Origin: Phyllobates terribilis
Lineage: Eukaryota
Assembly: GCF_046119375.1 (NCBI RefSeq)
Contig: NW_027362769.1
Location: 367,288,001-367,352,000 of the forward strand
Direction: 5' to 3'
DNA length: 64,000 nucleotides
In this document: positions 3,328 to 61,061 of the stretch, piece after piece
Position numbering within the stretch: the first letter of the stretch is position 1
Layout of the letters: every line of letters starts with the position of its first letter
Notes under the pieces: model-generated
Database searches by the model: none
Told to the model about the DNA's origin: nothing
The model's input: the letters and a program-made list of their open reading frames with translations, nothing else
Program-made: the position numbers and the translations under genes

Positions 3328-3627
3328 TAGTCTTGAGCGCAAGTGCTCGCTACTTGAGTTTACATCGGGTACTCAGGTATGCACCATGTATCGAGGGTGC
3401 TCGAGTGACATGCTCGAGTCACCGCCCTCATGTTTCACGGCTATTAGACACCCAAAAAAAAACATGCGGGGATCGCTCATGCATGGCAGGCAATCCCCGC
3501 AAGGTATTTTTGGCCGCAAAGCATATGGGGCGGAGACTCGAGCATGTCACTCGAGCACCCGCGATACTCAGGGCATACCCGAGCACCCAATGCAAACTCA
3601 AGTAGCGAGCACTTGCGCTCAACACCA
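3328..3627. mobile_element. hAT-type MITE nested in piggyBac-type copy A
   Basis: Long TIRs (TAGTCTTGAGCGCAAGTGCTCGCTACTTGAGTTT / AAACTCAAGTAGCGAGCACTTGCGCTCAACACCA). Degenerate 8-bp TSD gttgtcat/gtcgccat. Confidence 0.7.
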
Positions 3628-3670
3628 GTCGCCATATCGTCTTCTTTTTTTTTTTACTTTTGAAAAAAAT

Positions 3671-3871
3671 CCCAACCCTAACCCTACCCTAGCCCAACCC
3701 TAACTCCAACCCTAACCCCAACCCCAACCCATACCCTAGCCCAACCCTAACCCTAACCCCAACCCTAACCATAGCCCAACCCTAACCCCAACCCTAAGCC
3801 TAACCCTAGCCCAACCCCAAACCTAGCCCATCCCTAACCCTAACCCTACCACAACCCTAACCCTAACCCTA
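3671..3871 (-). repeat. Interstitial telomere-like repeat, degenerate (CCCTAA)n
   Basis: ccctaa/ccccaa/ccctag hexamers, ending in perfect ccctaaccctaaccctaa. Confidence 0.85.
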
Positions 3872-5851
3872 AAGTTTATATTTTACGCCGTTCCTCGTGC
3901 GGTATAAGTGATTAGACGACTTTATTCTTCGGGTCAGTGCGATTACAGCGATGCCAGAATCATATCGGGATTTTATGATTGACAGCTGTCACACACTAAA
4001 AGACGCATTTTTTTGTAAAATCTAGTTTTTGCATCGCCATATTTTGAGAGCTATAACTTTTCCATATATTGGCCGACAGAGTCACGTGACATCTTGTTTT
4101 TTGCGGGATGAGTTGACATTTTTATTGGTGCCATTTTCAGGCACGTGACATTTTTTGATCGCTCTCTATTCCGATTTTTGGCAGGCAGAATAAACAAAAA
4201 CCAACAATTCAGGAATTGTTTTTTTTGTTTTTTTTTTATGCTGTTCCGTGTGTGGTAAAATTGATAAGGTAGCTTTATTCTTCGGGTCAGTACGTTTACA
4301 GTGGTACCACATTTACATTGTTTGTCTATGTTTTGGCGCTTTTACACAATAAAAGCTATTTTAAAGAAAAAATAATTTTTTTGCATAGCTTTATTCTGAG
4401 AGCTATAACTTTTTTCTTTTTCGGCTGATGGAGCTGTATGGCAGCTTGTTTTTTGCGGGACAAGATGACTTTTTCAGTGGTATCATTATTATTTATATTC
4501 GTCTTTTCGATTGCGTGTTATTCTATTTTTTGTTTGGCAGTATGATGATAAAGCATTGTTTTTTGCTTCATTTTTTATTTATTTTTTTTACCATGTTCAC
4601 TGAAGGGGCTAACTAGTGGGACAGTTTTATAGGTCAGGTCATTCCGGACGCGGCAATACCAAATATGTGTACTTTTATTGTTTTTTTTTGCATAATAATA
4701 TTTATTGATGGGTACATTATACTTTTATTTTTGATGGATTATTTTTTTATTTTTTTTTCTTCACTTTCTGACACTTTTTTTACTTTTATTCTTTGTCCCA
4801 CTATGGGACTTTCACTTTTTTTATTCTGATCGCCTGTATAGCATAGGGATGGAGCACCAGCCCTGTGCTATTCAGGCTGTCAGCGCTGCAAATGCAGAAG
4901 GTACTTTGGTCATGCACTGTGCATGCCAAAATATCTTCCTGCTGTCTGGTAACCCAGATGTTGTCATGACGACATCGGGTCGTCATGGCAACATCCGGGA
5001 AGCCGCGGCAGACATCGCTGGACGCCGGCAGGAGAGGTGAGTATCCCGATCACCTCCCCTTGCCCTAGCAATGCTACGATCGATTCAGCTGCGACAATCG
5101 GCTGACACCCGGCGGCGATCGCGCCCGCACAGCCTGTGTGTGGGCGCGATCGCAAAGACGTACTAATACGTATCAGGCTCTTAAGTCCCAGGGCGCAGAT
5201 ACATATTAGTACGTCTTGAGCTTTAAAGGGGTTAAACTACAACTCCAATGTCAGCCCCTAATTCAATAGGAACCAAAGATCTGAGTACAGAGAATGATAA
5301 TAAAATAATTTGTCCACATAAATGGCAAAACTACCCAAAAATGGAGCCCCATAAAGATGTCCCAACTTGACCTCCCCCACCCACCTAATATCAACTGATC
5401 ATCAGCAATTTCTCATTTAGACAAGGGGTTGTCCTGAAAATGTCTTATTACAGAGTGTTCCCGGCAATCCATGATAAATCCGGTGGATAAACTATAAGTA
5501 TACCAAAGCCTAAAAGTAAAGAGCTACTTACCTGGACTCATCCTCTTCCAGCTGTCCGGTTATAGTGACACAAGATGGCAGCAGTGTAGAACATTATACA
5601 TTCTATTCCAATTGTGATGTCTATGATGTCATGTGCCTTGTGATGTCATCATAGCTATCACTGTCATTTCAAATTTACAACCGCAAGAAAAAGTTGATTT
5701 CATTGTTTAAGAAAAAACATGGTGGGTAATTGCAGCCTGTGATTATTTTACATATTGTTATTAATATTTGTCATGTCCTTCACTGCCGCCTCCTGCACAG
5801 CTTTTTATATACTGTTTATTTTAATAATGGACAATTCACAAGCCCTGCATG

Positions 5852-7119
5852 TGACGCGCCCCCTGGGCCATGCTGCGCCGCGCCGCGCATGCGGGGACAC
5901 CCGGAGCCGGATCCAACTGGGGTTGTAGTCTCCGAGTGGCTGGGACCCGGTCCGTGCCCAGGGTGGTCAAACCGACAGCAATCTATTTGTAATGTTGTTA
6001 TAGAGTTCGACTACGCCACCCGTTGATTTGCGGTCACAAGGCCGCCGCTGCAAAACAGTCCGCTGAGGCCGGTGGTATATATGTGCAGCTATGGTGGTAT
6101 AACCCCCAACGAGAGAGGTATAGCCTCAGGGCAGCTGGTACGGGAGAAGGGAGTGATAGTGAGAGCGTCCCGGTACCTATGGTGCTGGTGGTGCGATGGA
6201 ACACAGAGACTGATTGCAGCTTTCAATGCTTTACTCACAGTTGTTATTAACGTCAGTCCTGCAGGTGATGACGACCCGAGCCGTGCTGCGTCCACCAGGT
6301 GCGGGACTCGGCCAACTCCCAGGCAGTTCCAGAGCGTGGTCCTGAGCTCCCCTCTCCTCCTTCCTACTGGCCGTCCCCACCAGGGATCCACCTCTGTCCG
6401 GCTCCCTCGGGCCTTCTGGTGGTAAAACCTTTCCCGGCTTCCCTGACCCTATACGTGGTTTGCCTTCCTGGTGGATATGGCGAGGGGTCGCGCCAAAACT
6501 TGTCCACGACCTCCGGTTCCTGGCAGAGGATATTTGGCCTCCACCAGTTTGGGATCCGGTACCCTGTTCTGCCAACCCTTCACCCGTTAGCTCGTGGGAT
6601 CTCAGGGTTCCCTCTTCTCCTGCGTCTCTGGGCCTCTCCTGGCGCTTCTGTTCTTTCTCCTTCCGCTGTCTCTCTGCTTCAGGCCTCCACTCCAGGCCTG
6701 ACTCTGGAGCTGGGCCCGGACTGAGCCACAGCTCCCTGTCAACCCTCTCTGGCTGAGCTCCTCTCTTAACAGACCCCTGATCCAAGATGGTGCCCCCCCT
6801 TATATACTCCCTTCTGACACCCGAGCCCAGGTGACTAGCACCCAATGGGCTCCTACCTATGCCCAGAGTCCCTCCCCTCTCTGCTCCTACACCACTGGGA
6901 TGTTCCTCCCCCCCCACTCCAGCCGGGGACAGAAGCTGTCGTACCTGCACATCTATCTGGTGGGAGTACCGTTGGTCTGTCCCCCGGAAATGGGGTGAGT
7001 GTAGTGCATGCAGCTAACTGAGCTCAGTTCCACACTCCATCCTTACCCGGGAGTGGAATACCACACCTCTGGTTCGAGGTGCAATACCCCTGTAGCAGCC
7101 GAGTCCTCGGGGTGCTACA
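5852..7119 (-). mobile_element. Solo LTR A (LTR-retrotransposon, probably Ty3/Gypsy-type)
   Basis: TG...CA termini. 4-bp TSD CATG (5848-5851, 7120-7123). Sense-strand TATA (gagtatataagg) followed by CCATCTT. Clear similarity to the LTR at 58736-59954, which abuts a PBS. Confidence 0.85.
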
Positions 7120-7222
7120 CATGTACTGTAGAATATATAGTTAATGGCCTCTGTTGAATGACTAGATGCCTATTAGAGCAATAAGATATACTCTAAGTCT
7201 ACAATCTTTTGGCTGAGTCTAA

Positions 7223-8500
7223 GGGCTCATACTCATCTGCGTTTAAATCACACGAGTGCAATCTGATAAAAAAAATAATTGGATTGCTCTCTGACTCTTG
7301 TTATTGAATGATTATGTGTTTCTGTGATTTTTTTTTTTCCCAGCTCGGATCGAACTGAGAAAAAAAAATCACAGCATGCTGCAAGTGGCTGCATATATCA
7401 GACGAGACTCGCCAATGCAAGTCAATGTGTGCGAGAAAAAAAACGCACAGCAAACGGACCATGCTTATGCCATCCACATAATACGCATCTATGTAACACC
7501 TTTCAGTGACTGTGGCGGCATCTCAGCACACAAATCCTGTATCTCAGATCTTTGTCTGGCCTTCTCTTCTGTGTTTTGGCCATCATGCCGACAAGACAAA
7601 GGTGATTGGGGTAGGAGACATGCTGGTGAGGGGGTTGTTGGCTGCCGTGATGCTGGTAATGGAGGTGGCTGCCAAGATGCTGGCACTGGAGGTGGCTGCC
7701 GTGATGGTGCCACTGTAGTTGGTGGTGGCTGCTGTGATGCTGTGACTGGAGGAGGTGGTGATGACTGGTGTGATGCTGGTACTGGAGGTGGTGGTGGTGA
7801 CTGCCGTGATGCTGGCACTGGAGGTGGTGGCTGCCGTAATGGTGGGTCTGCTGAGTGCCCTTCTTGAGGGGTCTAAAGACCGGGTTTTGTTGTCCTCAGA
7901 AAGTTGCCACTTTTCAAAGAATTAAAAGACGGCCATCGGTGAATTTGGTGGCGCAGCGGCAGACAAAACAATTTGGAGGGCAGCCCTGGTGTGCAGACTC
8001 AATAAAAAGGGAACGTGCCTGAAATAACGGGCCAGGCTTAGACAAAAACTCTCATCATCATCACTCACAGGTATTCCCATGTCACGTACGCCAGTGATGG
8101 TGGGGCGGTAGCGATGAGGGGAGGTGTCGAGGGGCTGTGGTGTACTGGTGCTCTCCGCAGGCACTTCTTCTTTCTGGCCCCCAGCTCCAGCCTCCATTTC
8201 AGATTCCTCTCTGGCCTCCAGCACCTCCAAGCTACAGGTATTTCCCTTTTTGGTCCAGTCAGATCTGTAAGGTCAGGGATGACAGAGAAAAAAGCATTTT
8301 TAATATGCAAAATAATAATCAAACCATTACAACAAATAAAACTGAAAAAGATAGCCACTTACGGGTGAAAATCTAGGACTAGGGTCAAAAACTGGAGCCG
8401 GTCATAATATAGGTATGGCCTTTCTTTTTAAGAGCCACATCACTACTGTTCCTACCCTGTTGTCGCTCGCGGCGGCACTGGTCCCGGTAACTGCTCCATA
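7223..8500 (-). mobile_element. Truncated PIF/Harbinger-like element with relic MADF(Myb/SANT)-BESS gene
   Basis: Terminus TAA|GGGCTCATACTCA at 7220-7235. Minus strand reads RRERQQGRNSSDVALKK/RPYLYYDRLQFL (MADF C-terminal-like, one frameshift), a GT-AG intron at 8265-8362, then ...DDDESFCLSLARYFRHVP...RAALQIVL (BESS-like). Confidence 0.6.
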
Positions 8501-8689
8501 ATCTTGTCACTACACCCACTGGAAAGATAAGTGGAAGAGATTATATACAATTTTTATAGGTAAAGGATGCTGTATGTAATAACATGTATAGTGTGTATTC
8601 TAATATCACTGCTAGCAGGGGCTGGCTGGCAAATTTTAGCCTGGGGGCAAGAACACAGCAGTGGTCCATGAGTAGTGGCCCATCCTTAA

Positions 8690-9504
8690 TGGTCGTTTTC
8701 CCACAAACAATAGTATATTTTAATCAATAGATCTTGGAGTTATAATAATTTCCACAATTGGATGTGATATAATAATGTTCCTGTGCGGAGATAATCTTAT
8801 AAATGTGCCCCTGCTGTGTACTGTGTAATGGCTGTGTCTGACTGTGCAGGAACATGTTCTGATCATACCACATCTCCTGGGCAGGGGGGGAGAAAAAGCG
8901 GAAACAGGCAGGATAGCAGGGGATCACAGAGGATTCTTTTTGTGAGTAAAACATTTCACTGCCTGTTTTTAAACAATATTTTAGCTCAAAGAAAGACTCA
9001 GCTGTGATCCCCTGCTGTAATGTATATATACTCTCTTTATATATAGAAGATTAGTGTGCACACAGTCTGTAGGTCAAGGTGCAGGTACACGGGATGTGGA
9101 ATCCCCTGAATTGGCGTAGATTAAATCACCTCACCGCACATTCTAGTTTCAAGATGCAAACTAAAGTCTATTTGAAGACATGCAATTAGACACATTTAAG
9201 GTGCAGGGAATAATGCAACAGTAAATGAACGTTTTGACCCATCGTTTGCATCTTGAGACTAGAGTGTGCAGTGATTTAATCTATGCTATATACTCTTTTG
9301 CTTCCTCTCCTGCCCAGTAGCTGTGGTATGATCAGACCATGTTCCTGCCCAGTCAGACACAGCCATTACACAGTACACAGCAGGGGCACATTAATAACAT
9401 TATCTCAGTACAGGGACATTTTATTTAAACACATCCAATTGTGGAAGTTATTATTATTCCAAGATCTATTGATTAAAATATACTTTTGTTCGCAGAAAAC
9501 CCCT
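8690..9504. mobile_element. Kolobok/T2-type MITE with ~200-bp TIRs
   Basis: TTAA at 8686-8689 and 9505-9508. Right end reads AGGGGTTTTC on the minus strand. 8700-8890 is the inverted match of 9300-9500. Additional inner inverted repeat at ~9120-9280. Confidence 0.7.
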
Positions 9505-10985
9505 TTAACCCCTTAATAACATTTGACGTACTAATACGCGTCTGTGCCCTGGGACTTAAGAGCCAGACCCGTATTAGTACGTCATGGCGATCGTGCGCGC
9601 ACACAGGCTGTGCGGGCGCGATCGCCGCCGGGTGTCAGCTGATTGTCACAGCTGACACCCGGTACTATGTGCAGGGAGCGGTCCTGCACCGCTCCCAGCA
9701 CATTAACCCCCGCTATGCTGCGATCGAAGTCGATCGAAATCGATCGCGGCATTGGGGGGCAAGGGGAGGTGATCGGCGATACTCACCTCCTCTTCCGGCT
9801 TCCAGCGCAGACTGCAGCGGCTTCCCGGGTGTTGCCATGACGACCCGATGTCGTCATGACAACATCCGGGTCACCAGAGAGCAGGAAGATTGCTTGGACA
9901 TGCGCAGTGCATCTCCAAGCAATCTTAACACTGTGCACTTCTGACAGCCTGCATGGCATAGGGATGGTGCTCCATTCCTATGCCATGCAGGCGATCAGAA
10001 AAAAAAAAAGTGAAAGTCCCAGAGTGGGACAAAGTAATAAGGTGTACAAACTGTCTGAAAGTGGGAAAAAAAAAAAAAAATGTGCAAAAATATTATAAAA
10101 AAATAAAAAAAATAATACACCAAAAATAAAAATATAATGTACCCATCAATAAATATTATTATAAAAAAAATTTAAAAAAAACAATAAAAGTACACATATT
10201 TGGTATCGCCGCGTCCGGAACAGCCTGACCTATAAAACTGTCCCACTAGTTAACCCCTTCAGTGAACACGGTAAAAAAAAAAAAAAAGCAGCAAAAAACA
10301 ATGCTTTATCACCATACCGCCAAACAAAAAGTGGAATAACACGCGATCAAAAAGACGCATATAAATAAAAATGATACCGCTGAAAACGTCATCTCGTCCC
10401 ACAAAAAACAAGCCGCCATACAGTTCCATCAGCCGAAAAATAAAAAAGTTTCAGCTCTCAGAATAAAGCGATGCTAAAAAATATTTTTTTCTATAAAATA
10501 GCTTTTATTGTGTATAAGCGCCAAAACATAGAAAAATTATACAAATGTGGTACCGCTGTAAACGTACTGACCCGAAGAATAAAGCTACCTCATCAATTTT
10601 ACCACACGCGGAACAGAATAAAAAAAAAAAAAAAAAAAACAATTCCTGAATTGTTGGTTTTTGTTTATTCTGCCTCCCAAAAATCGGAATAGAAAGCGAT
10701 CAAAAAATGTCACGTGCCTGAAAATGGCACCAATAACAACGTCAAGTCATCCCGCAAAAAACGAGCCGTCACATGACTGTCTGCCAAAATCTGGAAAAAT
10801 TATAGCTCTCAAAATATGGCGATGCAAAAACTAGATTTTACAAAAAATGCGTCTTTTAGTGTGTGACAGCTGTCAGTCATAAAAACCCCATATGATTCTG
10901 GCATTGCTGTAATCACACCGACCCGAAGAATAAAGTCATCTAATCACTTATACCGCACAAGGAACGGCGTCAAAAATAAACTCTT

Positions 10986-11226
10986 GGGTTAGGATTGGGC
11001 TAGGGTTAGGGCTGGGTTTGGGGCTAGGGTTGTGCTGGGGCTAGGGTTGTGCTGGGGCTAGGGTTATGCTGGGGCTAGGGTTGTGCTGGGGCTAGGGTTG
11101 TGCTGGGGCTAGGGTTGTGCTGGGGCTAGGGTTGTGCTGGGGCTAGGGTTGTGCTGGGGCTAGGGTTGTGCTGGGGCTAGGGTTGTGCTAGGGCTAGGGT
11201 TGTGCTAGGGCTAGGGCTGGGGTTGG
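10986..11226 (+). repeat. Telomere-like G-rich array homogenised to a 17-bp unit (CTAGGGTTGTGCTGGGG, ~11 copies)
   Basis: Starts gggttaggattgggctagggttaggg. Exact 17-bp period from ~11024 to ~11205. Confidence 0.85.
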
Positions 11227-11269
11227 GATTTTTTTCAAAAGTAAGAAAAAAAGATGACGATATGGTGAC

Positions 11270-11569
11270 TAGTGTTGAGAGCAAGTGTTCGCTACTTGAG
11301 TTTGCATCGGGTGCTCTGGTATGCATTGAGTATCGTGGGTATTTGAGTGACATGCTCGAGTCTCTGCCCCATATGCTTCGCGGCCAAAAAACTTTACGGG
11401 GATTGCCTGCCATGCACGAGCGATCCCCGCATGTTTTTTTTTGGGTGCCTAATAACCGTGAAACATGCGGAGCAGGGACTCGAGCATGTCACTCAAGCAC
11501 ACGCTGTACATGGTGCATACCTGAGTACCCGATGCAAACTCAAGTAGCGAGCACTTGCGCTCAAGAATA
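11270..11569. mobile_element. hAT-type MITE nested in piggyBac-type copy B (same insertion as 3328-3627)
   Basis: TAGTGTTGAG...CGCTCAAGAATA TIRs. Flanks atggtgac/atgacaac correspond to the reverse complements of the copy A flanks. Confidence 0.7.
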
Positions 11570-11659
11570 ATGACAACTTATTCAATATGATGACCTAATG
11601 TAAACAAATTCTGTGCCGTACCTCTGGGTTCAAAATGTTCACTATACACCTTAATAAAA

Positions 11660-12910
11660 TCCTTGAGGGGTATAGTTTCCAAAATGGGGACACTTGTGGG
11701 GGAGCTCCACTGTTTAGGCACATCACGGGCTCTCCAAACGCGACATGGTGTCCGCTAACAAATTGAATGGAAAATCGGCTCAAATTGTTAGCGGACGCCA
11801 TGTTGCGTTTGGAGAGCGCCTGTGTGCCCAAACATTGGAGCTCCCCCACAAGTGACCCCATTTTGGAAACTAGACCCCCCAAGGCACCTTTCTAGATGCA
11901 TAGTGAGCACTTGGAACCCCCAGGTGCTTCACAAATTGATTCGTAAAAATGAAAAAGTGAAAAAAAAAACACTTTTTCATTTTTACGAATCAATTTGTGA
12001 AGCACCTAGGGGTTCCAAGTGCTCACTATGCATCTAGATAGGTGCCTTGGGGGGTCTAGTTTCCAAAATGGGGTCACTTGTGGGGGAGCTCCAAAGTTTG
12101 GGCACAGAGGGGCTCTCCAAACGCAATGTGGTGTCCGCTAACAATTTGAGCCGATTTTCCATTCAATTTGTTAGCGGATACCATGTTGCATTTAGAGAGT
12201 CCCTGTGTGCCCAAACATTGGAGCTCCCCCACAAGTGACCCCATTTTGGAAACTAGACCCCCCAAGGCACCTATCTAGATGCATAGTGAGAACTTGGAAC
12301 CCCTAGGTGCTTCACAAATTGATTTGTAAAAATGAAAAAGTGTTTTTTTTTTCACTTTTTCATTTTTACGAATCAATTTGTGAAGCACCTGGGGGTTCCA
12401 AGTGCTCACTATGTATCTAGAAATGTGCCTTGGGGGGTCTAGTTTCCAAAATGGGGTCACTTGTGGGGGAGCTCCAAAGTTTGGGCACAGAGGGGCTCTC
12501 CAAACGCAATGTGGTGTCCGCTAACAATTTGAGCCGATTTTCCATTCAATTTGTTAGCGGATACCATGTTGCATTTAGAGAGTCCCTGTGTGCCCAAACA
12601 TTGGAGCTCCCCCACAAGTGACCCCATATTGGAAACTAGACCCCCCAAGGCACCTATCTAGATGCATAGTGAGCACTTGGAACCCCTAGGTGCTTCACAA
12701 ATTGATTCGTAAAAATGAAAAAGTGTTTTTTTTTTCACTTTTTCATTTTTACGAATCAATTTGTGAAGCACCTGGGGGTTCCAAGTGCTCACTATGCATC
12801 TAGAAAGGTGCCTTGGGGGGTCTAGTTTCCAAAATGGGGTCACTTGTGGGGGAGCTCCAAAGTTTGGGCACACAGGGGCTCTCCAAACAGAACATGGTGT
12901 CCGCTAATTA
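11660..12910. repeat. Array of six consecutive long palindromes (alternating inverted units, 383-bp period)
   Basis: Symmetry centres near 11773, 11964, 12157, 12346, 12540 and 12729. The ORF track repeats at 12047/12430/12813. Confidence 0.85.
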
Positions 12911-13973
12911 TTCAAGCAAATTTTACAATCAAAAAGTCAAATGGGGCTCCTTCCCTTCCGAGCCCTGCCGTGCGCCCAAACAGTGTTTCTTCCCCAAATA
13001 TTGGGTATCTGCGTGCCCAGGGGAAATTGCACAACAAATTTTGGGGTCCATTTTTTCTTGTTACCCCTGTGAAAATAAAAAAAATTGGGTCTAAAGTAAC
13101 ATTTTTGTGAAAAAAGTTAAATGTTCATTTTTTTCTTCCACATTGAAAAAATTCCTGTGAAGCACCTGAAGGGTTAATAAAGTTCTTGAATGTGGTTTTG
13201 AGCACCTTGAGGGGTGCAGTTTTTAGAATGGTGTCACTTTTGGGTATTTTCTGTCATAAAGACCTCTCAAAGTGACTTCAAATGTGATGTGGTCCCTAAA
13301 AAAATGGTTTTATAAATTTTGTTGGAAAAATGAGAAATCGCTGGTCAACTTTTAACCCTTATAGCTCCCTAACAAAAAAAAATTTTGGTTCCAAAATTGT
13401 GCTGATGTAAAGTAGACATGTGGGAAATGTTATTTATTAACTCTTTTGTGTGACATATTGCTCTGATTTCAGGGCTTAAAAATTCAAATTTTGAAAATCG
13501 CAAAATTTTCAAAATTTTTGCCAAATTTCCGTTTTTTTCACAAATAAACGCAAGTGATATCGAAGAAATTTTTCCACAATCATGAAGTACAATATGTCAC
13601 GAAAAAACATTCTCAGAATCAGGGGGATCCGTTGAAGCGTTCCAGAGTAATTACCTCATAAAGTGACAGTGGTCAGAATTGTAAAAATTGGCCCGGTCAT
13701 TAACGTGCAAACCACCCGCGGGGCTTAAGGGGTTAACATGTTTATTACCAGCTGATTCATAGGCTATATTCACACAAACGTATTGTCTAAGTGCTGCCCG
13801 TGGAAAAAAATGACAGCACTTGGTCCAGTTCAGGTGAGCATTTAAAAATGGTAATACATAAGCATAATATGTACAATGTCTGACCACTACAAAACGGATT
13901 TAGGTTGTTAGAGGTGTAATGCAAGTAATCCAAGGTACGCTGTGCTTTTCTAGACTCCTAAAAAACAGAGTAA

Positions 13974-21660: not shown

Positions 21661-22898
21661 TGTGGCGCCCCTGAGGGTTCAGTCGCCACAGAGGTACTGC
21701 ACCTCAACCAGAGGTGTGGTATCTCCTTCTCTCAGGTAAGGAGGGAGTGCTGCCCGGAACCCCAACACCCACATTCAACACTACACTGCTCAAGGCCGGC
21801 TGGAGGGGCAACATGCATTCGCAAAGCTGAACCCTGTCCCTGGCTGGAGTGGAGGGGAACCCAGAGGTAGGGGGAATCAGTAGTGGGTGTGGGTGGAGGA
21901 AATAGTTTAGAGGAGCACCATTACAGGAGGCATATAAAAAGGGAAGCCATCTTAGGGTGGCAGTGCAGTAGAGCTCAGTGAGTGAGGGAAATCAGTCTGG
22001 GAGCAGAGGTTCTTTAGGAGCTCTGCTCCACAAGTAGGGCCCAGTCCTAGAGGCCCAGGAGGGGAGCAGATGAGTAGGCTCCGATCTACAGAAGGGATCC
22101 TAGGGAGTACGGCGAGTGCAGGACGGCACCCGTACGTCCCGAATCTGTCAGAAGACAGAGGGATCGTAGGCCGCAAGAAGAGGACCGGCCCCTGGTCCAG
22201 CCGTGTTACTCTAAGTCTCGGCTGGGAAAACCGGAGGCTTCTGGCTTATATAGTCAGTTGCCGAAGCCTCATTCTAATCCCCGTGAGGGTCAAGCAGGTC
22301 CAGGAACTCCAACAAGACAGGAGGGACTTCAGAGCACCCGAGCAGGATTGAGAGTGGGGAAGCGCAGGGCAGGAGGGAGAAAGACCCAGCGTGAACACAA
22401 GAAAGTGGGGTTCTGTCAGGTGCTTCAAATCTGCCTGACGAAGAGCTGAACCACTGCCTGGTGAATGCAGAGCGACGTGGGAGGCTAGCACCCGTACAGT
22501 GCACCAGTGGAACTGTCATAAGAACTGTGAGTAAAAACTCAGATGACTGCACCGTACTGCCTCCGTCCATTCTTTCATCTGCGCCCTCTTGCCTCCTGGC
22601 ACTACAACGCCCAGAGCAAGTTACACTACCTACACTGCCCTGGAGCTAAGCTCTACCTGTGGAGAGCCACACCATCCCTGCTGCCGTAACACCAGCTCCA
22701 GAGGACTGCTCCGCAGCGGCGGCTCCCTTTAGCCGCATTCCACAGGTGGCGTCACGAACACTGCACAAATCCCCTATAAATATTACCCCCCTTTTTGGTG
22801 ACCGCCCTGGGCCACGGACCGGGCCAGCCACCGTGATATCCCCCACCAGCATCCATAGGCCCGGCTGCCGAGTACCCCACGGCTCTGGGGGCGCGTCA
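21661..22898 (+). mobile_element. Solo LTR B (same clade as LTR A/C/D) inserted in the satellite
   Basis: TGTGGCGCCCC...GGCGCGTCA termini. TSD CAAC/CGAC. 5' end similar to LTR A/D (gtactgcacctcaaccagaggtgtggtat). TATA (catataaaagg) plus CCATCTT. Confidence 0.85.
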
Positions 22899-27116: not shown

Positions 27117-27964
27117 ACCACATCCTCCTCATCAGAGCCGGCACCGCTGATAGCAGGCGATGGTCCACACTATATAGAGAGAACAACACGATCTATTCTA
27201 TGTTCTACTGTATGATTTACTATAGATCAGAAATGTAAAGCATTAAATAGGTTGATCCTGCTATATTTCGTAGCGCAGATACTAATTTTAGTGACCCGGC
27301 TAATAGAGAGTTAAACGGTGGAGAAAACACTTGTATCTGGTATTGGTTGGCGCCTGCTGAGATGTCTGTAATTGGTGGTTTTGAGTTTCCCGCGCAATCT
27401 TTCTTTGTGCGTCGGATTATTACCCGCCCCTCTGCTTGTAGCGGAGATCGCAATCTGAGCAATGCGGTCTGAGCACAGCTCTACCCCTCTGAGAATACAG
27501 CGCAGAGCAGCTTTCCCCGAACACGGTAATGGTTCTTATCGAAAAGAGGATGGTTCTCCACTAATCATTTATGTGAGGTCATGAACCTTCAGCGGCCTCC
27601 ATATACACTGAGCCTGATACAAGCCCCGTCCTCAATCACAGGATCTTATGTTTCCATTCTGTAAGCAGCACTCGGAACATCACTACTGATGGGAGCAGTT
27701 GCGTATCTTGTATTAAAGAAAGCTGATACTGCTTCAATAACTCGGGATATCTACAGATTGCTGTAAGGAACGCAATCAGCCCGTCAAATACTATACATCA
27801 CTCCAACCACAACAAACTCATCCCTTCAGTGCAAGTATCCTCAGTTATCAATGAGTGAACATTTTTAACTCATGAACAGCGTATAAAGCTTGTACTGGCA
27901 TTCACACAAGCACAGGGATTGTTACTCCAACAGGAGATTGTAGCCTCTCATCTAGAAGATGTGG

Positions 27965-27980
27965 TGGCTCTGAAAAGAGC
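27965..27980 (-). promoter_or_regulatory. Histone 3' stem-loop of H4
   Basis: GGCTCTTTTCAGAGCC-ACCA on the minus strand. Confidence 0.95.
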
Positions 27981-28013
27981 CTTTGGGTTGTCAGGATGGA
28001 GCAGAGAACACAA

Positions 28014-28530
<517 letters not shown>

Positions 28531-30092
28531 CCGCAGCTTCTAATTATATATGTTTTACCTGTGATGAGAAATGTTTCAAAAACAGTCTGTAAATAAAAGG
28601 GCAGACACGACACCAGCTGCAAGTGATCTACACTTCATATAGAAACATCAGATCACTGCTGAATATACCTGTAACGGCACTGACAGTGATTAACCCCCAC
28701 TTCCATCATACCAGCATATTCGTAACATGCTATTCACTAATGTCCAGGAAGGGTCATTTCCGCACCTTACTACTCCCCTCATCATCCCTTGCATTCTGTA
28801 CAATCTACATGTGACATTCTGGCTGCTCCCGGTGACTAATCTATAGGATCCTGACTGAGCTCTGACATTTCTAAGATGGGCTTGTCACTTCTGATAGAAT
28901 TGCTCTTGGGGTGCGGTGATGTGAGGAGGATTGTGGCTGCCAGGATTATTGCCTCTTCTAAGGACAGTGCAGGGAGGAAGCCGCGGTCAGCAGCACTGCT
29001 CCGATACTAAATATTTTGCCACCACTGGGATTTTCCGCTCATCAGAAATGACAATATTTACTTTCTCCTAATAACACTTGTATTGTAATTGTCAGAGATC
29101 ATAAAACTCAGATATCACTTGTTTCTTCATATGAAGATTTGCATTTAGAGAATGTTATTTTCATGTAGAAGATAATGACAACAGCTCAGGTCAAATAAAA
29201 AAGGAACCGTATAAATAACAAAATCACTGAGCAGCTGATTGATTCTCATTCCAGTGGTCCCATATCCAATGGAGAATACACTGTGATCTGGAAGGTGATT
29301 ACATGAATGTGCTCAGTGGAGTTTATCTATAGACCGGACAATTCTCTTCACAGCAGAAGTAGTAACACAATTACATGTAGAAGCTGCGGAAACTCCAAGG
29401 AGCGGGAAATTCAAACTCCCTAACGTCCTGTGTTCAGCCAATCAGCAGAGGAAGGGGAGGAGCTAATGTTAGTAGTTACCGAATAGGAAGTTCCCGCTCA
29501 GGGGCTGATGGCTTTTTCTGTCCTTCTGGATCACGTAGTTTCAGGACTGTCGGATATCAGGAAATTTGCTTGTGTTGAGCGATCAATGGTCTCTTGGTTC
29601 CATACAGGAATTTCTATCATTTTCCAGGATCCAGGGAACAGTATCCGCTTTCTATAAACACAAAGTGCAGAACTGATTCTAACAATGGTGACTCCATCAC
29701 ACCAGCAATATGCCGGGAATATAAAGAAACGAGATACTGCAGTTTACAGAGAACTTTGAAAGAAGGAGGCGGGGATTTTATAAAATGTAGGTTAATATTA
29801 TCTAGATAAACCTACTACAGAGCTGCAGAGGATATTAGTCTCTTAATCCTGATGCGTTTTCAGGATCAGACCCGTGCTGCTGATAGGAGTCAGCGAGTGT
29901 TCACAGGAGATAGCGCTGGATAATGGACGTCCTATAATGATCGCATCATATACACCAAGAAATCTGCGCATGCTTTCTAGATTTCTTCACAACACCGTAC
30001 AGACTCCTAATAGATTATATAAAGATATTATTCAATAATCAGGGTAGAGAAGCAGATGTGAGGGATTAGCTCGTTATTATGGAGGATTTGGT

Positions 30093-30108
30093 GGCTCTGA
30101 AAAGAGCC
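30093..30108 (-). promoter_or_regulatory. Histone 3' stem-loop of H3
   Basis: GGCTCTTTTCAGAGCC-ACCA on the minus strand. Confidence 0.95.
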
Positions 30109-30139
30109 TTTGTGTTATAGTCAGACGTGTAGGACGGAT

Positions 30140-30646
<507 letters not shown>

Positions 30647-52243: not shown

Positions 52244-53254
52244 TGACTTGCCCCCTGAGCCGTGGGGCACCCGGAACCGGGGTTTAGTGCGATGATGGGG
52301 GTAGTAGTGGCAACCCCATCCCGTGGCTCAGGGTGGTCAGACCAAATGCTGTGGCAGTCTATTTGTAGAGTTATGAATGTCCGACTACGCCACCCGTGGG
52401 TTGCGGTCAGGGATGACCGCCACTGCAAGGCAGACCGCTGATGCTGGTGTGCAGCACAGGGATAGGATAACTCCCAACGGGAAGAGTGTAGCCTCAGGGA
52501 AGCGTATGTGAATGCTGGTGGTGATAGTGCAGGCCGCAATAATAAGAGTTCAGAATCCGCTTCAAACAGTCCAGGGTCTTTATTGTAGGTATTACTAATG
52601 ACCCGACAGGAGTACCGGGTAGGAATGGGCCTGGGTGTCTGAGAGCATTCGGGCGAGCCCCACTGGTCAGGGTGAGTGTGAAGGCCTACCGTTCTCACTC
52701 TGCCCTTGCTGACTATCCCCCTTTTCGTGGTGTAATAGCCCACGTCCCTGAGCTGGCCATGTACTTCGCCTGTATGGCTTGCCACTCGGGCCTTGGGTAC
52801 CTTTTGCTTCCTCGTGCTGTACCGTTTCCCTCTGTGTGGCGGAGCCTCCATGCTTCTTTGGCCAAGGGACCTGAAATCCCTCGCGGGTTGGTTCTCTGCT
52901 GCTGGGCTTGCAACCCTGACAGCCTCGGACCCCAATGTCCGTTGGTGTAGTTCTCTCATCCAGAACCGGCTCTCGTCGCCTCTGTCCCTGGCTCGCAGCT
53001 TCTCCTCTGCCTCACGGACTCCTTGGCTACAGCTGAACTGTCCCTCCTTCTCTGGGACTAGTCTCAGTCCTGAGCTAGGTCGTCCAGTTCTCTCTAACCC
53101 TGCCCTCAGTTCCAGCTTTTATAAGGGCAGCCAGCTCCACCTACTGGCCTGGGACAGGAGGTGCTGTATGCTAATTGTCCCTGACCAGGGAACCTAACTC
53201 CTGCTCTCAGACACAGCCTATAATATTTGTGGCATCCAGGCCTGGGGTGACACA
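52244..53254 (-). mobile_element. Solo LTR C (same clade)
   Basis: TG...CA termini. TSD CCCC (52240-52243, 53255-53258). Shares the gactacgccacccg...gccgc.ctgcaa block with LTR A/D. Confidence 0.8.
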
Positions 53255-54260
53255 CCCCGATCACCTGAGGATAACAAGGTCCTAATTCTAGAAGAGCGAA
53301 CTTTTAAAAATCTGACTTATTTTGGTAGTGGGTTCTATGAGCGCCATTCAATCCTCAAGTAGGGGATGGCGGGAGAGGGGTTAATTCCATTCAGTGCCGT
53401 TATCTGTATATTCAGCAGTGATCTGATGCTTCTACTCCGCTCCATCTACACATCCAGGAGGCTCCTCATTCACCCACTAATCTACATTGATACCCTGTGG
53501 TGTTCGCTCCGATCCAACTGAGGAGAAGTCTCACAGGTTCTACAAGGAGCCTGATGTGAGCGTCGTGGGGTCTGGGGAAGACCCCGCTTCTGTAAAGCAT
53601 GTGTAAGTGCGGAGTGGGGATCAACAAAACACACGGCTACTAGAGTTAAACAGTGGCAGAAATACTTGTATCCGGTATTGATCGGCGCCTGAGGATGTCT
53701 GTCTGTCATTGGCTGATCACAGATCCGTTGGCTGTTTTTAATTTCCCGCTCAATCGTTCTTTGTCTTTTGTCATATTACCGGCTCCTCTGCTTGTAGGGA
53801 GAACGCTATCTGGTCTGGGGGAAGCTCTACCCCACTGTACGGCGCAGAGCCGCTTACCCCAATCACAGTGATCGTAGAGAGAAGGGTGGGCCTCAATTAT
53901 TAATTATTTTCGGGTTAACAATCTTCACCATCATTCAAGGTTTTCTCCAAGCAGCACTCGGAACATCGCTATTGATGGGAGCAGGAATGTACCTTGTATT
54001 ACAGAAAGCGGATACTGCTTCCATAACTCGGGAGATCTACAGATTCCTGTATTGGACGTAATCGGTGATTGACTAGAAATCATTCCAACCACAAGAAACT
54101 ATTAACCCTTCAGTGCCAGTATTCTCGGAGCTCCTTGTGAACAATGACTGAGTATTTTAATTCCTATTAAACAGTGTATAAATCTCGCACTGACATTCAC
54201 AGAAGCACAGGGATTATTACTCGCCAGCAGGAGATTGTAGCCTCACTTAGAAGATGTGGT

Positions 54261-54276
54261 GGCTCTGAAAAGAGCC
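54261..54276 (-). promoter_or_regulatory. Histone 3' stem-loop of H4 copy 2
   Basis: GGCTCTTTTCAGAGCC on the minus strand. Confidence 0.95.
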
Positions 54277-54308
54277 TTTGGGTTGTCAGGATGGAGCAGA
54301 GAATACAA

Positions 54309-54827
<519 letters not shown>

Positions 54828-56256
54828 CTATAACGGCACTGACAGTGATTAACCCCCACTTCCATCATACCAGCATATTCGTAACATGCTATTCACTAAT
54901 GTCCAGGAAGGGTCATTTCCGCACCTTACTACTCCCCTCATCATCCCGTGCATTCTGTACAATCTACATGTGACATTCTGGCTGCTCCCGGTGACTAATC
55001 TATAGGATCCTGACTGAGCTCTGACATTTCTAAGATGGGCTTGTCACTTCTGATAGAATTGCTCTTGGGGTGCGGTGATTTGAGGAGGATTGTGGCAGCC
55101 AGGATTATTGCCTCTTCTAAGGACAGTGCAGGGAGGAAGCCGCGGTCAGCAGCACTGCTCAGATACTTAATATTTTGCCACCACTGGGATTTTCCGCTCA
55201 TCAGAAATGACAATATTTACTTTCTCCTAATAACACTTGTATTGTAATTGTCAGAGATCATAAAACTCAGATATCACTTGTTTCTTCATATGAAGATTTG
55301 CATTTAGAGAACATTTGTTATTTTCATGTAGAAGATAATGACAACAGCTCAGGTCAAATAAAAAAGGAACCGTATAAATAACAAAATCACTGAGCAGCTG
55401 ATTGATTCTCATTCCAGTGGTCCCATATCCAATGGAGAATACACTGTGATCTGGAAGGTGATTACATGAATGTGGTCAGTGGAGTTTTATCTATAGACCG
55501 GACAATTCTCTTCACAGCAGAAGTAGTAACACAATTACATGTAGAAGCTGCGGAAACTACAAGGAGCGGGAAATTCAAACTCCCTAACGTCCTGTGTTCA
55601 GCCAATCAGCAGAGGAAGGGGAGGAGCTAATGTTAATAGTTACCGAATATGAAGTTCCCGCTCAGGGGCTGATGGCTTTTTCTGTCCTTCTGGATCACGT
55701 AGTTTCAGGACTGTCGGATATCAGGAAATTTGCTTGTGTTGAGCGATCAATGGTCTCTTGGTTCCATACAGGAATTTCTATCATTTTCCAGGATCCAGGG
55801 AACAGTATCCGCTTTCTATAAACACAAAGTGCAGAACTGATTCTAACAATGGTGACTCCATCACACCAGCAATATGCCGGGAATATAAAGAAACGAGATA
55901 CTGCAGTTTACAGAGAACTTTGAAAGAAGGAGGTGGGGATTTTATAAAATGTAGGTTAATATTATCTAGATAAACCTACTACAGAGCCGCAGAGGATATT
56001 AGTCTCTTAATCCTGATGCGTTTTCAGGATCAGACCCGTGCGGCTGATAGGAGTCAGCGAGTGTTCACAGGAGATAGCGCTGGATAATGGACGTCCTATA
56101 ATGATCGCATCATATACACCAAGAAATCTGCGCATGCTTTCTAGATTCTTTCACAACACAGTCCAGACTCCAAATAGATTATATAAAGCTGACATTCAAT
56201 AATCAGGGTAGAGAAGCAGATGTGAGGGATTAGCTCGTTATTATGGAGGATTTGGT

Positions 56257-56272
56257 GGCTCTGAAAAGAGCC
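56257..56272 (-). promoter_or_regulatory. Histone 3' stem-loop of H3 copy 2
   Basis: GGCTCTTTTCAGAGCC on the minus strand. Confidence 0.95.
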
Positions 56273-56303
56273 TTTGTGTTATAGTCAGACGTGTAGGACG
56301 GAT

Positions 56304-56810
<507 letters not shown>

Positions 56811-57050
56811 CTACAACTCTATTGGCTAGTTCATAAATTAACATGAGCCGCCAAAACACGTGTGATGTCTGCGACCAATCATTATTCACGAAATCAACCC
56901 AACACCCAGTAATCCCGCCCTCATAAAGAGGGGCAGGGTCTCTGTTCACACTCTTTTCTGGCTGCGGATACTGGCACAGGGTCACACCATGTCTACATGC
57001 GGCTTCTACAGCAAGAGCCGCCGTCGTCACTGTTCTTCTATGTCACCAGT

Positions 57051-58709
57051 GACAAAGACGTCGCCGGGGGTTCTGTGGTCCCGTATAAAACCCCACCCGT
57101 GCTCCATTTGGAATTTTATTACAGTCCCGCTGGCACGGGGACCGTGGGCAGTACGGGGGTTTCTGCGGGCCCGGCGCTTTTGCTCGGCGCTCTGGACTTG
57201 GAGCCGCTCCTCGCGGACCCGCCTCTCTCGTCGCTCCTTCGCAAAAGCCTCCAATTGTTGCCAGCAGCACTCCGTACGCTGGGCTGCGGCTGCCCGGGTC
57301 TCCTCGGTGAATCCCATCAGGTCCTCACCGGTAGGGTCCCACTCAAATTGGGCGTCCTCCAACGGAAGCGGATCGAGTTTGGCGGGCGCAGGAGCCGGAA
57401 TTAGAGGCTCATCCAGAGGCCGTTCTCTCCGGAATCGAGGGTGAATATATTCAGGTGGCCACACGAAGAGCAGCCCGTCCTGGGTGGTGTTTTGTGCGGA
57501 GCGGTCTTCGCCCAGATGGGGTGCTGTGGAGGCAGAGGGCGCTGTGGTGTTTGCGGCGCCCAGGGGCTCCTGGCCTTGCGTCCAGGCCGAAGGTAGTCTG
57601 AATACAAAGGGCGCTTTAAAGATTGCGGCGCCCGGGTCTACCAGGCCTTGCGACCAGACCGGTGGCATGATGGAGGTAGAGGGCGCTGTGAAGACGGCGG
57701 CGCCCGGGGGTACTTGGCCTTGCGACCAGGCCGGGGGCGCTTCTTGCTTGGCCGCGCTCTGAGTCGAGGCGCATGACGTAGCAGGGGGCGTGGCCGCGGC
57801 TCCTGCCGCTTGAGGCCTAGCTCAGAGCGGTGACGATGCAGCAACGTGAGTGGTGAGTGGGGGCAAGCTTGCGACCATCGGGCACGGGGTGTTGTCGTCC
57901 CCATTACCTGCTCCCTTTTCTTCAACTCCCTCCGCGGCGTCGTCTCCGGCCGTCGTCCCTCCTGCACCTTCCTCAGAGGCGGACATGCTCCTTGTCGTGG
58001 GTGGTGTGCTTCGCTGGCGGGTTCCAGCCTGCTGGGCCATCTCCTTGCTCCACTCCGCCAGAGCTTCCTGCTGTACCCGGGCCATCTTCCGTGCGAGGCC
58101 CTCCAGCGCGGTCTGTGCACGCTCCCGATCTCCGGGGAGCTGCGCCAGGATCTCCAGCAGGCCTTCTGTAGTGGCGGCCTGCAACAGGCTCCTGACCACA
58201 GGGTCGGTGCTGCCTGACTCTCCCTCCATCTCCGGGTGTGTTCTCTCTAGACTCCTCCAAGCTGCTCCCATCTTCTCTCTTTTGTTCTGTATCCGCCCCC
58301 ATTGAGGGTGGTCCTGGGGCAACTTGGTGATTGTCAGTTCCAGGGGCAGACCCCCCACGCTGATGGACATCTCAATCATTGCAGTCTCTGCTGGTGGGGG
58401 CGGTCTCCGCTTTTGGCGCCATTCTTCGACCTGGCCCACGATGGGAGGTGGTCTCTTGCCACCCTCTGGCACGCCCATAATGGCGTCCGCTCTGCCAGGG
58501 CGGGAAATCTTCTTAGATGGCGGGAATCGCTTCCCAGTGGCGGGAAACACTGCAGATGGCGGGAAAAGACTGCAGATGACGGGCAAATGGCGGGAACCGA
58601 TCCGAGATGGCGTCCGATGGCGGGGACCCTCCGGAACCGGCGGGAGACTTCTTTTTGAGGTAAATGCGAACTTTTCTTCAGGCACGCAGTACCCGGTGGT
58701 TGCGGGCAC
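57051..58709 (-). pseudogene. First ORF of an LTR retroelement (~550 codons, one in-frame TGA at 57822-57824), ending in a truncated cold-shock-domain motif
   Basis: ORFs 57822..58709 and 57027..57668 are in the same frame and the intervening codons are open. C-terminus SGTVIKFQMEHGWGFIRDHRTPGDVFV. Confidence 0.75.
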
Positions 58710-58711
58710 GT

Positions 58712-58730
58712 AATCCTGCCGACTACGCCA
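58712..58730 (-). promoter_or_regulatory. Primer-binding site complementary to the tRNA-Ser(AGA/TGA-type) 3' end
   Basis: Plus strand AATCCTGCCGACTACGCCA equals the recalled vertebrate tRNA-Ser 3' end including CCA. Lies 5 nt from the LTR end. Confidence 0.88.
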
Positions 58731-58735
58731 AAAGT

Positions 58736-59954
58736 TGACGCACCCCCTGGGCCATGTTCAAGGGATACCCGGAGCCGGATCTGTATGGGGGTAGTAGTCC
58801 TTGTGGCGGTGACCCGGTCCGTGCCCAGGGTGTCAAACTAAGTGGCAGTCTATGGCAGCAGATGTTAATTTGATCGACTACGCCACCCGTTGAGTGCGGC
58901 TTTGAAGCCGCCGCTGCAAAGCAGTCCGATGAGGCCGGTGGTATATGTGCAGCAGTGATGGTATAACCCCCAACGGGAGAGGTATGGCCTCAGGGCAGCA
59001 GGTGTGGATGATGGGTGTAGTTATGTTGTAGAAAGGAGAGTCAGAGACTTGAGGTGCAGTTTCAGGGTTTTTACTCACTGATGTTGCTTTAGTCACTCTG
59101 GCCTTGAGTGACCACCCGAGCCGTGCTGCGTCCACCAGGTGCGGGACTCGGCTAACCCCCAGGCAGTTCCGGAGCGTGGTCCTGAGCTTCCCTCTCACTC
59201 TTTCTCCTGGCCGTCCCCACCAGGGATCCACCTTTGTCCGGCTCCCTCGGGCCTCTTAGTGGTTGAACCTTCTCTGGCTTCCCTGGCCCTACTCGTGGTG
59301 TGCCTTCCTGGTGGATATGGTGAGGGTCGTGGCAAAACTTGACCACGACCTCCGGTTCCTGGTTAAGGGTTACTTCTGCCTCTGCCAGCTTGGGATCCGG
59401 TGCCCTTTTCTGCCAACCCTTCACCCTTTCTGGTCTGATTCTGGGTTCTTGGGGTTCCCTCTGTCTTTCTCTCTGGGTCCTTCTTACTCCTCTCTCTCTC
59501 TCTCTGCAGGCCTTGCTCTGGAGCTGGGCCCAGCCGGAGCCACAGCTCCCTGTCAGCCCTCCTGGCTGAGCTCCTCTGCTCTGCTTCTCCTCAGGCTCTC
59601 TGACCAAAGACCCTATTCTAAGATGGTGCCCACCTTATATACTCCCTCCATGTGTGAGCCCAGGTGACCAGCACCCAATGGGCTCCTAGCTTTACCCAGA
59701 CTACTCCCCCTATCTGCCCCTACACTACTGGGATGTTCCACCCCCCCTCCCACTCCAGCCAGGGACAGACGCTGTCGTACCTGCACATATACTGGTGGGA
59801 GTACCGTTGTTCTGTCCCCCGGAAATGGGATGTATGTAGTGCATGCAGCCTACTAAGCTCAGTTCCACACTCCATCCTTACCCGGGAGTGGAATACCACA
59901 CCTCTGGGTCGAGGTGCAATACCCCTGTAGCAGCCGAGTCCTCGGGGTGCTACA
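58736..59954 (-). mobile_element. 5' LTR (LTR D) of a truncated LTR retrotransposon
   Basis: TGTAGCACCCC...GCGTCA. TATA plus CCATCTT. Close similarity to solo LTR A. Flank CACG corresponds to an empty site near 33548 in the paralogous copy. Confidence 0.88.
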
Positions 59955-61061
59955 CACGCATATCTGGATCTGGATTGGGGGATGAGGGGGGCCACGCATA
60001 TCAGGATTGGGGGATGAGGGGGGGCATCCATACCAGGATTGGGGGATGAGGAGGCCATGCATACTCAAGTCAATATGTTTTCCCAGTTTTTTGTGGTAAA
60101 ATTAGGGGCCTTGGCTTATACTCTGGTTGGCTTTATACAGTATTTTAAAATCAGTGAGTACGTGGTGCCCATAATATTGCAGGACTGTGGGGTGCATTAT
60201 ACTATATGGGGGCTGCATTTTACCCTATGGGGTGTGTAATATACTGTATGGAGGACTACGGGGAGTGCATTATATTCTATGGAGGACCATGGGAAGTACA
60301 TTATACTATATGGAGGATTATGGGGGGCGCATTATATTATATGGAGGATTATGGAGGGCATATTATACTATATGGAAGGCTAGGTGGGGCCATTATAATA
60401 TTTTGAGGCCTATGTAGGGGGCCATTATACTGTATGAAAGCAATTATATGGTGTGAAGGTTTGTGTGGGGTCCATCATACTGTTTGGAGGGCTGTGTAGG
60501 GGCTATTATACTGTATGTAAGCCCATTATGCTGTATGGAGGGCTGTGTGGGGGTCACAATTGGGGGATCATACTGTGATGGGGTCACCAAACTTTGCCTT
60601 GGGATTTGAGGTGGGGTACAATAGCTTCATTATACTGTGCATGTGGAGGCATTCCCCTTGTGGGTGTCATACTGTGTTTGGGGGACACTTTTATGGGGTG
60701 TCATACTTTATGGGGGCAATAAAAGAGGAATCTAGGACTTCAGCAGGAGGAAAATTACTAAGTAAAGGCTGGAAAGTTGTGAGATCTGCTCTTCTGTGAC
60801 TCAGATATATATATATAAAGGAGACCCCGGAATATCTGATCTGGGGAGCAAGTGGTTGAGTTAAAAGCCACTGAACACACGACAACTCGCTCAAAAATTA
60901 CTGAAAGGATCAGAGCTGTGAAGGAACTCATTCATAGGTTTCACTATCAGTCTAGAAGGGCTTAATCAGCTCTACTAGCGCCACCTGCCATTTACCCCGT
61001 GAATAGACGTAGACAGGAGAGGACACAGGAGCAGCCACAGCTCTGATGTAGATGGTGTGGT

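Follow-up and report, generated by a model that had tools for sequence, protein, structure and literature searches.

The U5 region of a group of Ty3/gypsy elements carries two sites complementary to the primer tRNA in addition to the true PBS (site P). Site M repeats the beginning of P, and site Q, located between M and P, is complementary to the tRNA's 5' end. M, Q, and the PBS of a given lineage of these elements all fit one tRNA-Ser isoacceptor. As judged from sequence comparison, M is a selected, tRNA-specific site. On balance, the evidence leans towards M and Q together acting as a non-priming docking site that would clamp both ends of the primer tRNA and keep it parked before its hand-off to the PBS. 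The original prediction had proposed a second annealing or loading site. Such a site is supported by conservation across families and by switching together with the primer tRNA; a second productive primer site is not supported.

Elements and tRNA-complementary sites in the window

The window, i.e., the whole 64,000-nt stretch of DNA that was analyzed, contains LTRs A, B, C, and D; the features of these elements given below lie on the minus strand unless stated otherwise. LTR D (58736-59954) serves as 5' LTR to a non-autonomous, truncated element of the Ty3/gypsy type, which matches the intact element L091 at 87-94%. Its 3' LTR is absent within the window, and the internal region (57049-58711) holds a broken ORF and is truncated at about 57049. 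The PBS of this element (58712-58730) is a 19-nt complement of the tRNA-Ser(AGA/TGA) 3' end. Site M (58875-58885) is an 11-nt complement of the equivalent of tRNA nt 66-76, which comprise the acceptor 3' strand, the discriminator, and CCA, while site Q (58794-58807), interrupted by a 3-nt insert in LTR D, complements tRNA-Ser nt 1-11. Solo LTR A (5852-7119, 4-bp TSD CATG) contains M at 6008-6018 and Q at 5925-5940, and solo LTR C (52244-53254, 4-bp TSD GGGG) contains M at 52381-52392 and Q at 52301-52311, both LTRs being of the AGA type. Solo LTR B (21661-22898, plus strand) belongs to the tRNA-Ser(CGA) lineage and has a 13-nt M at 22747-22759 and Q at 22827-22837. The tRNA-Ser(CGA) version of M in LTR B, as well as site Q, a third site, lay outside the original prediction. 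Both M and the PBS are complements of a host tRNA 3' end including CCA: the host genome (10.6 Gb) contains tRNA-Ser(AGA) and tRNA-Ser(TGA) genes whose 3' end matches them.

The sequence TGGCGTAGTCG occurs on the minus strand at 6008-6018, 52382-52392, 58720-58730 (the true PBS), and 58875-58885. These four matches compare with 0.48 expected, and four or more were obtained in 0 of 100 shuffles. The copies that had been predicted within LTRs A, C, and D were reproduced at their positions, each inside an LTR defined by TSDs or homology. The same applies to the distances between the motif and the LTR 3' end (149 nt in D, 166 nt in A, and 148 nt in C), to the CGGG directly preceding all three U5 copies, and to the 12-nt match in LTR C, where the 12th base at 52381 also fits. 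The motif is kept in solo LTRs, as had been proposed, since M is present in solo LTRs A and C. The placement of M and Q in U5 is suggested by two candidate signals, namely AGTAAA (59070-59075, also in LTR B at 22530), which would be a non-canonical poly(A) signal, and TATATAA (59635-59641), a candidate TATA box.

Elements L091-L096 have the features of LTR retrotransposons: TG...CA LTRs, 4-bp TSDs, a PBS, and a purine tract before the 3' LTR. An autonomous relative of LTR C (L094) has the pol order PR-RT-RNaseH-IN of Ty3/gypsy elements and a CCHC knuckle, and the best PDB match of its RT is Ty3 RT. With respect to the PNMA domain (gag), four broken gag pieces of L094 gave no Pfam match. Intact relatives of the LTR D element have LTRs that are 99.5-99.8% identical and an ORF with a cold-shock domain. 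In L091, the ORF at 1533-3707 ends in this domain (Pfam CSD, E 1.7e-7), whose window counterpart lies at 57030-57100. The reading frame of L091 is also open from within U5 across the PBS.

Other features of the window were observed as well. Two stretches, 27900-30200 and 54200-56300, are 99% identical and lie 26.2 kb apart, and several sites within C9 362-367 Mb also hold LTRs A and C, which suggests segmental duplication. Positions 1600-13600 hold large nested inverted repeats with units of 383-394 bp and telomere-like CCCTAA tracts, probably derived from a DNA transposon.

Conservation and RNA structure around M

The prevalence of M was assessed in the first 90 consecutive PBS(AGA) sites of contig C1, picked regardless of M. 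M is carried by 88 of these 90 elements with at most two mismatches (exactly in 73), 143-178 nt upstream of the PBS; the two remaining elements have LTRs interrupted by other DNA. Genome-wide, there are 51,168 CA-N4-PBS(AGA) sites, and exact M falls inside the gap window, which undercounts, in 20,307. The weighted column conservation of M is 0.935 compared with a U5 mean of 0.758 among copies that are 72% alike, contrary to the possibility raised earlier that the motif might be no more conserved than flanking U5. M ranks 12 of 304 windows and is one of about four conserved U5 blocks. Within a lineage, M shows no positional change beyond copy-level or CpG-type changes and the last base of one family. 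In unrelated copies (L212, L213, L216, L217, L224, and L230), M has repeatedly lost 7 nt located between two CG dinucleotides.

The contigs of a second organism cover M with no listed difference there, which is weak evidence of presence only. No relatives were found in viral contigs, and a tRNA-Ser PBS is present in none of the 78 metagenome loci, which are 37-48% identical. Consequently, the comparison of M and Q is confined to one genome.

The structure of U5 was studied in an alignment of 57 rows. From 210 loci, 154 LTRs passing an M-anchored filter were dereplicated to 53, of which two broken ones were dropped, and six were added by hand; due to this filter, the alignment is unfit for estimating the prevalence of M. 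According to the alignment, U5 folds as multiple helices. The CGGG is part of the 3' strand of helix f (58886-58892 in LTR D), whose 5' strand (58971-58977) is located 85 nt away. M starts at the base of helix f with zero gap throughout the alignment. Helix f exists in three fully paired types, found in 32, 10, and 9 of the 57 representatives, and its paired fraction is 0.982 compared with 0.88 in shuffles that ignore kinship. Helix a (5' strand 58987-58993, partner 58929-58935, with one mismatch in LTR D) crosses helix f and has a paired fraction of 0.964 in 51 of the 57 rows, compared with 0.871 in shuffles of the same kind. One of the two double changes in helix f is of CpG type, while the other one and those of helix a are not. 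That M remains unchanged while helices a and f compensate is expected for a site with a host-encoded partner.

Further structural elements include helix c (58913-58953, pairing 58948-58953 with 58913-58918), recognized by eye from the alignment without a formal count, and hairpin e (58896-58911), whose variable stem shows compensation in the alignment. Q is enclosed by helices k/h (58745-58830, pairing 58824-58830 with 58745-58751) in the RNAalifold structure. Site alpha (58843-58850) is lineage-restricted, being absent in family E and the CGA lineages, and could pair with M or P. In the AGA families, M is predicted to be mostly paired to local segments (unpaired 0.13-0.46), and single-sequence folding gives inconsistent pairing partners. 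An Rfam search of 56500-60100 returned nothing credible, and interpretations of the U5 fold as HDV, twister, or hammerhead were weighed by eye and dropped.

The tRNA-Ser(CGA) lineage and site Q

A divergent U5 was traced to a sister lineage with a PBS matching tRNA-Ser(CGA), for which the gene was verified. CGA-PBS sites with a 4-5 nt spacer number 3,297 genome-wide, and an additional family of the CGA lineage, with a longer spacer, accounts for 12,155 LTR matches. In family F, the LTR end and the PBS are separated by an unusually long pyrimidine spacer of 7-8 nt (L452, L454, L460, L463, L472, and L478), compared with 4-5 nt in other families. The CGA-type M (13 nt, at most two mismatches) is present in 26 of 30 unbiased CGA-PBS sites, none of which carries the AGA type, and it is found in 0 of the 90 AGA-PBS sites. 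In the CGA lineage, the conservation of M amounts to 0.858, compared with a mean of 0.725, and the 20 nt that follow reach 0.579; M ranks only 41 of 288 there, with M10 often being A. Discordant pairs of M and P are limited to 4+1 genome-wide, compared with more than 20,307 concordant AGA pairs, and these five comprise three inter-family chimeras, one small deletion, and one E-like LTR with a CGA PBS.

The RT identity between the AGA and CGA lineages is 75%. The U5 tree needs two changes in all 200 bootstrap trees, while the AU test does not reject a single origin (p 0.33; halves 0.12 and 0.36; Q columns left in). Consequently, at least one primer switch took place, and perhaps two. A third tRNA type with the same U5 was not found in a search of the genome. 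Five single elements (L292-L296) have a PBS for other tRNA-Ser isoacceptors, in addition to one chance match; none of them has been amplified, and their U5 keeps the family type where it is visible.

Read-through copies of tRNA-Ser(CGA) are found at LTR ends in 7 of the 10 loci examined, out of 26, which indicates that this tRNA primes at P. Three loci (L483, L486, and L487) hold copies of the mature tRNA-Ser(CGA) 3' end of about 40-50 nt, far past the usual 18-nt stop, two of them at LTR ends. Only one intact tRNA-Ser(CGA) gene of matching sequence was found (L409, C2:193078382-193078463); the lineage has thousands of copies.

Site Q occupies the loop formed by helices k/h and complements tRNA nt 1-11/12. 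It is unbroken in the CGA lineage and family E, and in the main AGA families it has a 1-5 nt insert or one mismatch. The tRNA 5' end finds its best partner within U5 in Q in 52 of the 56 rows with an anchor, and Q is predicted to pair better with the cognate than with the non-cognate tRNA in 26 of 30 and 23 of 27 rows. The predicted Q:tRNA medians are -21.9 and -16.2, compared with -13.1 and -12.7, respectively, for shuffled sequences; in the main AGA families, the interrupted Q is only modestly better than controls (-16.2 versus -15.0 non-cognate and -12.7 shuffled). When the tRNA is scanned in 12-nt windows in the CGA lineage, only nt 1-12 stand out clearly. At the G7-U66 wobble of tRNA-Ser(CGA), the base of Q is C in 29 of 29 cases and that of M11 is A in 28 of 29, so that Q follows the 5' strand of the tRNA and M the 3' strand. 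At the family level, Q has changed mainly to G-U wobbles, in addition to some mismatches, and none of these changes is followed by M. A G4 isodecoder that would explain the Q mismatch of family F was not seen among the 10 loci examined, out of 26.

Proposed docking of the primer and alternative readings

Among the 22 genome-wide candidates whose sequence departs right before M, none is an LTR ending at M with a TSD. M does not define the LTR end in integrated copies as a PBS does, and the idea of a second productive primer site fails on this count. The earlier argument that the LTR boundary is not at M, based on TSDs located 148-166 nt further on, is reinforced by the same result. Fusions of M and P number one in the AGA and one in the CGA type genome-wide; in one element, M of the 5' LTR reaches the length of the full 18-nt complement, whereas the 3' LTR is normal (L447/L479). 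In these cases, conversion and rare priming are not distinguishable. Two chimeric LTR ends (L443 and L445) consist of a family F LTR that continues into its own PBS and is joined to a family E end via GCGTCAC microhomology, with tandem PBS remnants at the junction.

In the docking reading, the single-stranded NCCA of the tRNA would act as a toehold that lands on the UGGC of M. The acceptor stem would then open, its 3' strand pairing with M (11-13 bp) and its 5' strand with Q (11-12 nt), while the T-arm stays intact. Extension would be impeded by helix f, which adjoins the CCA end, and the tRNA could therefore be parked during loading or packaging. The 3' strand would subsequently move to the stronger 18-nt PBS, and Q would keep the 5' end as a PAS-like helper; the parking and hand-off steps are pure inference. 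Predicted energies for M:tRNA are about -21 kcal/mol (-20.9; range -19 to -25) and for Q:tRNA -15 to -24 kcal/mol, compared with about -37 kcal/mol (-36.7) for P:tRNA, -8.5 kcal/mol for the acceptor stem, and only -9 to -15 kcal/mol for M:Q. The docking reading draws on one genome and one or two switch events.

The most serious rival, possible though on the unlikely side, is an intramolecular switch. Here Q would be the real PAS-like helper, and M would only mask Q (or pair with alpha) or keep Q off the PBS until the tRNA arrives, thereby tracking the tRNA indirectly. M5-10 are by construction identical to tRNA nt 1-6 and are therefore able to pair with Q, GTGGC at M0-4 can pair with GCCAC of Q, and the predicted energies of M:Q and P:Q are equal (-11.6 and -11.7 kcal/mol). 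The HIV PAS is masked likewise, as described in the relevant part of PMC1865047. However, the bases at M11-13 in the CGA lineage track the 3' strand of the tRNA rather than Q, the order of the two Q segments does not allow a single helix with M, and changes in Q never drew compensation in M. A more elaborate proposal, tentative and rather improbable, is that U5 is a pseudoknotted clamp capturing uncharged tRNA-Ser by both ends, with the CCA helix stacked on helix f in a T-box-like manner and the primer parked, for packaging or as a charge-sensing switch, before it is passed on to the PBS. In the T-box antiterminator, UGGN pairs with the NCCA end of a tRNA beside an RNA helix. M, in contrast, would pair with the whole acceptor 3' strand, and the likeness is one of analogy only; Rfam gave no T-box match at E<=5 in 56500-60100, and no complement of the anticodon arm was seen.

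It is quite improbable that M is a functionless leftover from an LTR that was extended over an older PBS and that it persists, as the PBS does, through sporadic gene conversion or mis-priming. M is preceded by CA and 4-5 nt, as at a real LTR end, in the L443 and L445 chimeras an LTR end arose within an earlier PBS, and L447/L479 offers an example of an extended M. These events are, however, vanishingly rare (one extension and 1+1 fusions versus 51,168 and 3,297 PBS sites), CA and CGGG are accounted for by helix f, the match of M breaks off abruptly after 11-13 nt, the flanking linker decays, and same-strand conversion cannot yield Q. The suggestion that M acts as a decoy, drawing off the 3'-tRNA fragments by which LTR elements are silenced, found no positive support and is very unlikely. 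Such fragments act via the PBS and can be seed-independent, according to the part of PMC12853362 concerned, and M does track the cognate tRNA. Nevertheless, M covers only the 3' 11-13 nt of the fragment with far weaker predicted pairing than the PBS (medians -21.2 versus -36.7), placing such a site on the same RNA provides one more target, and Q and the fixed position of M against helix f are left unexplained.

A DNA-level protein site is a slim prospect: CAC[AG]GGTGGCG, which we take to resemble a CTCF-like core, is common to both lineages and kept in solo LTRs, but M positions 7-11 switch with the tRNA, and the bases upstream of M covary with the partner strand 85 nt away. Least probable of all is M as an alternative productive primer site, since LTRs do not end at M and tRNA read-through copies lie at the true PBS, even though 11 nt suffice as a PBS in Drosophila gypsy (PMC1635307, in the part concerned) and L447 could reflect rare priming at M.

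The docking arrangement of M and Q would work like the HIV PAS and the multipartite PBS of Ty1 and Ty3, although it appears to be neither. U5 of FIV or HIV-2 pairs with the tRNA 5' end, which would be a precedent for Q. In the relevant passages of PMC5066621, PMC1865047, and PMC11251516, the HIV-1 PAS is a U5 site for pairing with the T-arm that leader structure can mask, and a change of the PBS has to be accompanied by a change of this site. Q resembles it as a U5 site upstream of the PBS for the tRNA strand freed by PBS binding; it is complementary to the tRNA outside its 3' 18 nt and co-changes with the PBS. Unlike the PAS, which in these passages pairs with 8 nt of the T-arm 5' strand, Q would pair with tRNA nt 1-11/12, and M repeats the PBS itself, as no PAS equivalent does. 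Ty1 and Ty3, as presented in part of PMC5371799, have bipartite PBSs and are likewise LTR elements with several tRNA-complementary segments. Their segments bind different tRNA parts (acceptor, T-arm, and D-arm), those of Ty3 at opposite genome ends, whereas the elements described here have a full 18-nt PBS, the first 11-13 nt of which recur as M 135-180 nt upstream. The comparison with the bipartite Ty3 PBS made in the original prediction is inexact for M, whose tRNA target fully overlaps that of P, and would hold only for the pairs P+Q or M+Q, Q being complementary to another segment. Drosophila gypsy has a second, 3'-terminal 11-nt site that anneals tRNA and is dispensable for cDNA synthesis (PMC1635307, in the same part). 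M is similar in being an 11-nt non-PBS tRNA complement, but the gypsy site lies near the genome 3' end and binds the anticodon/T stems, while M lies in the LTR and would compete with the PBS for the same tRNA bases. The open-access texts searched contained no description of a U5 PBS duplicate that tracks the primer; the part of PMC4131045 consulted contains no PBS analysis.

The selection and loading of primer tRNAs by retroelements, and their holding without early priming, are known from a few models, namely HIV, Ty1, Ty3, and gypsy. With this group of Ty3/gypsy elements from a vertebrate, which numbers more than 50,000 copies with a PBS, comes a natural primer-switch experiment in which three sites were changed together, and the co-switching sites give a sharp, testable map of tRNA contacts. 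For annotation, PBS finders may call a false LTR end at M, and every solo LTR of the group carries complements of tRNA ends. If the pseudoknotted clamp were true, it would represent a eukaryotic retroelement RNA that senses or selects a tRNA by structure, and it would serve as a key matching non-autonomous passengers to helpers.
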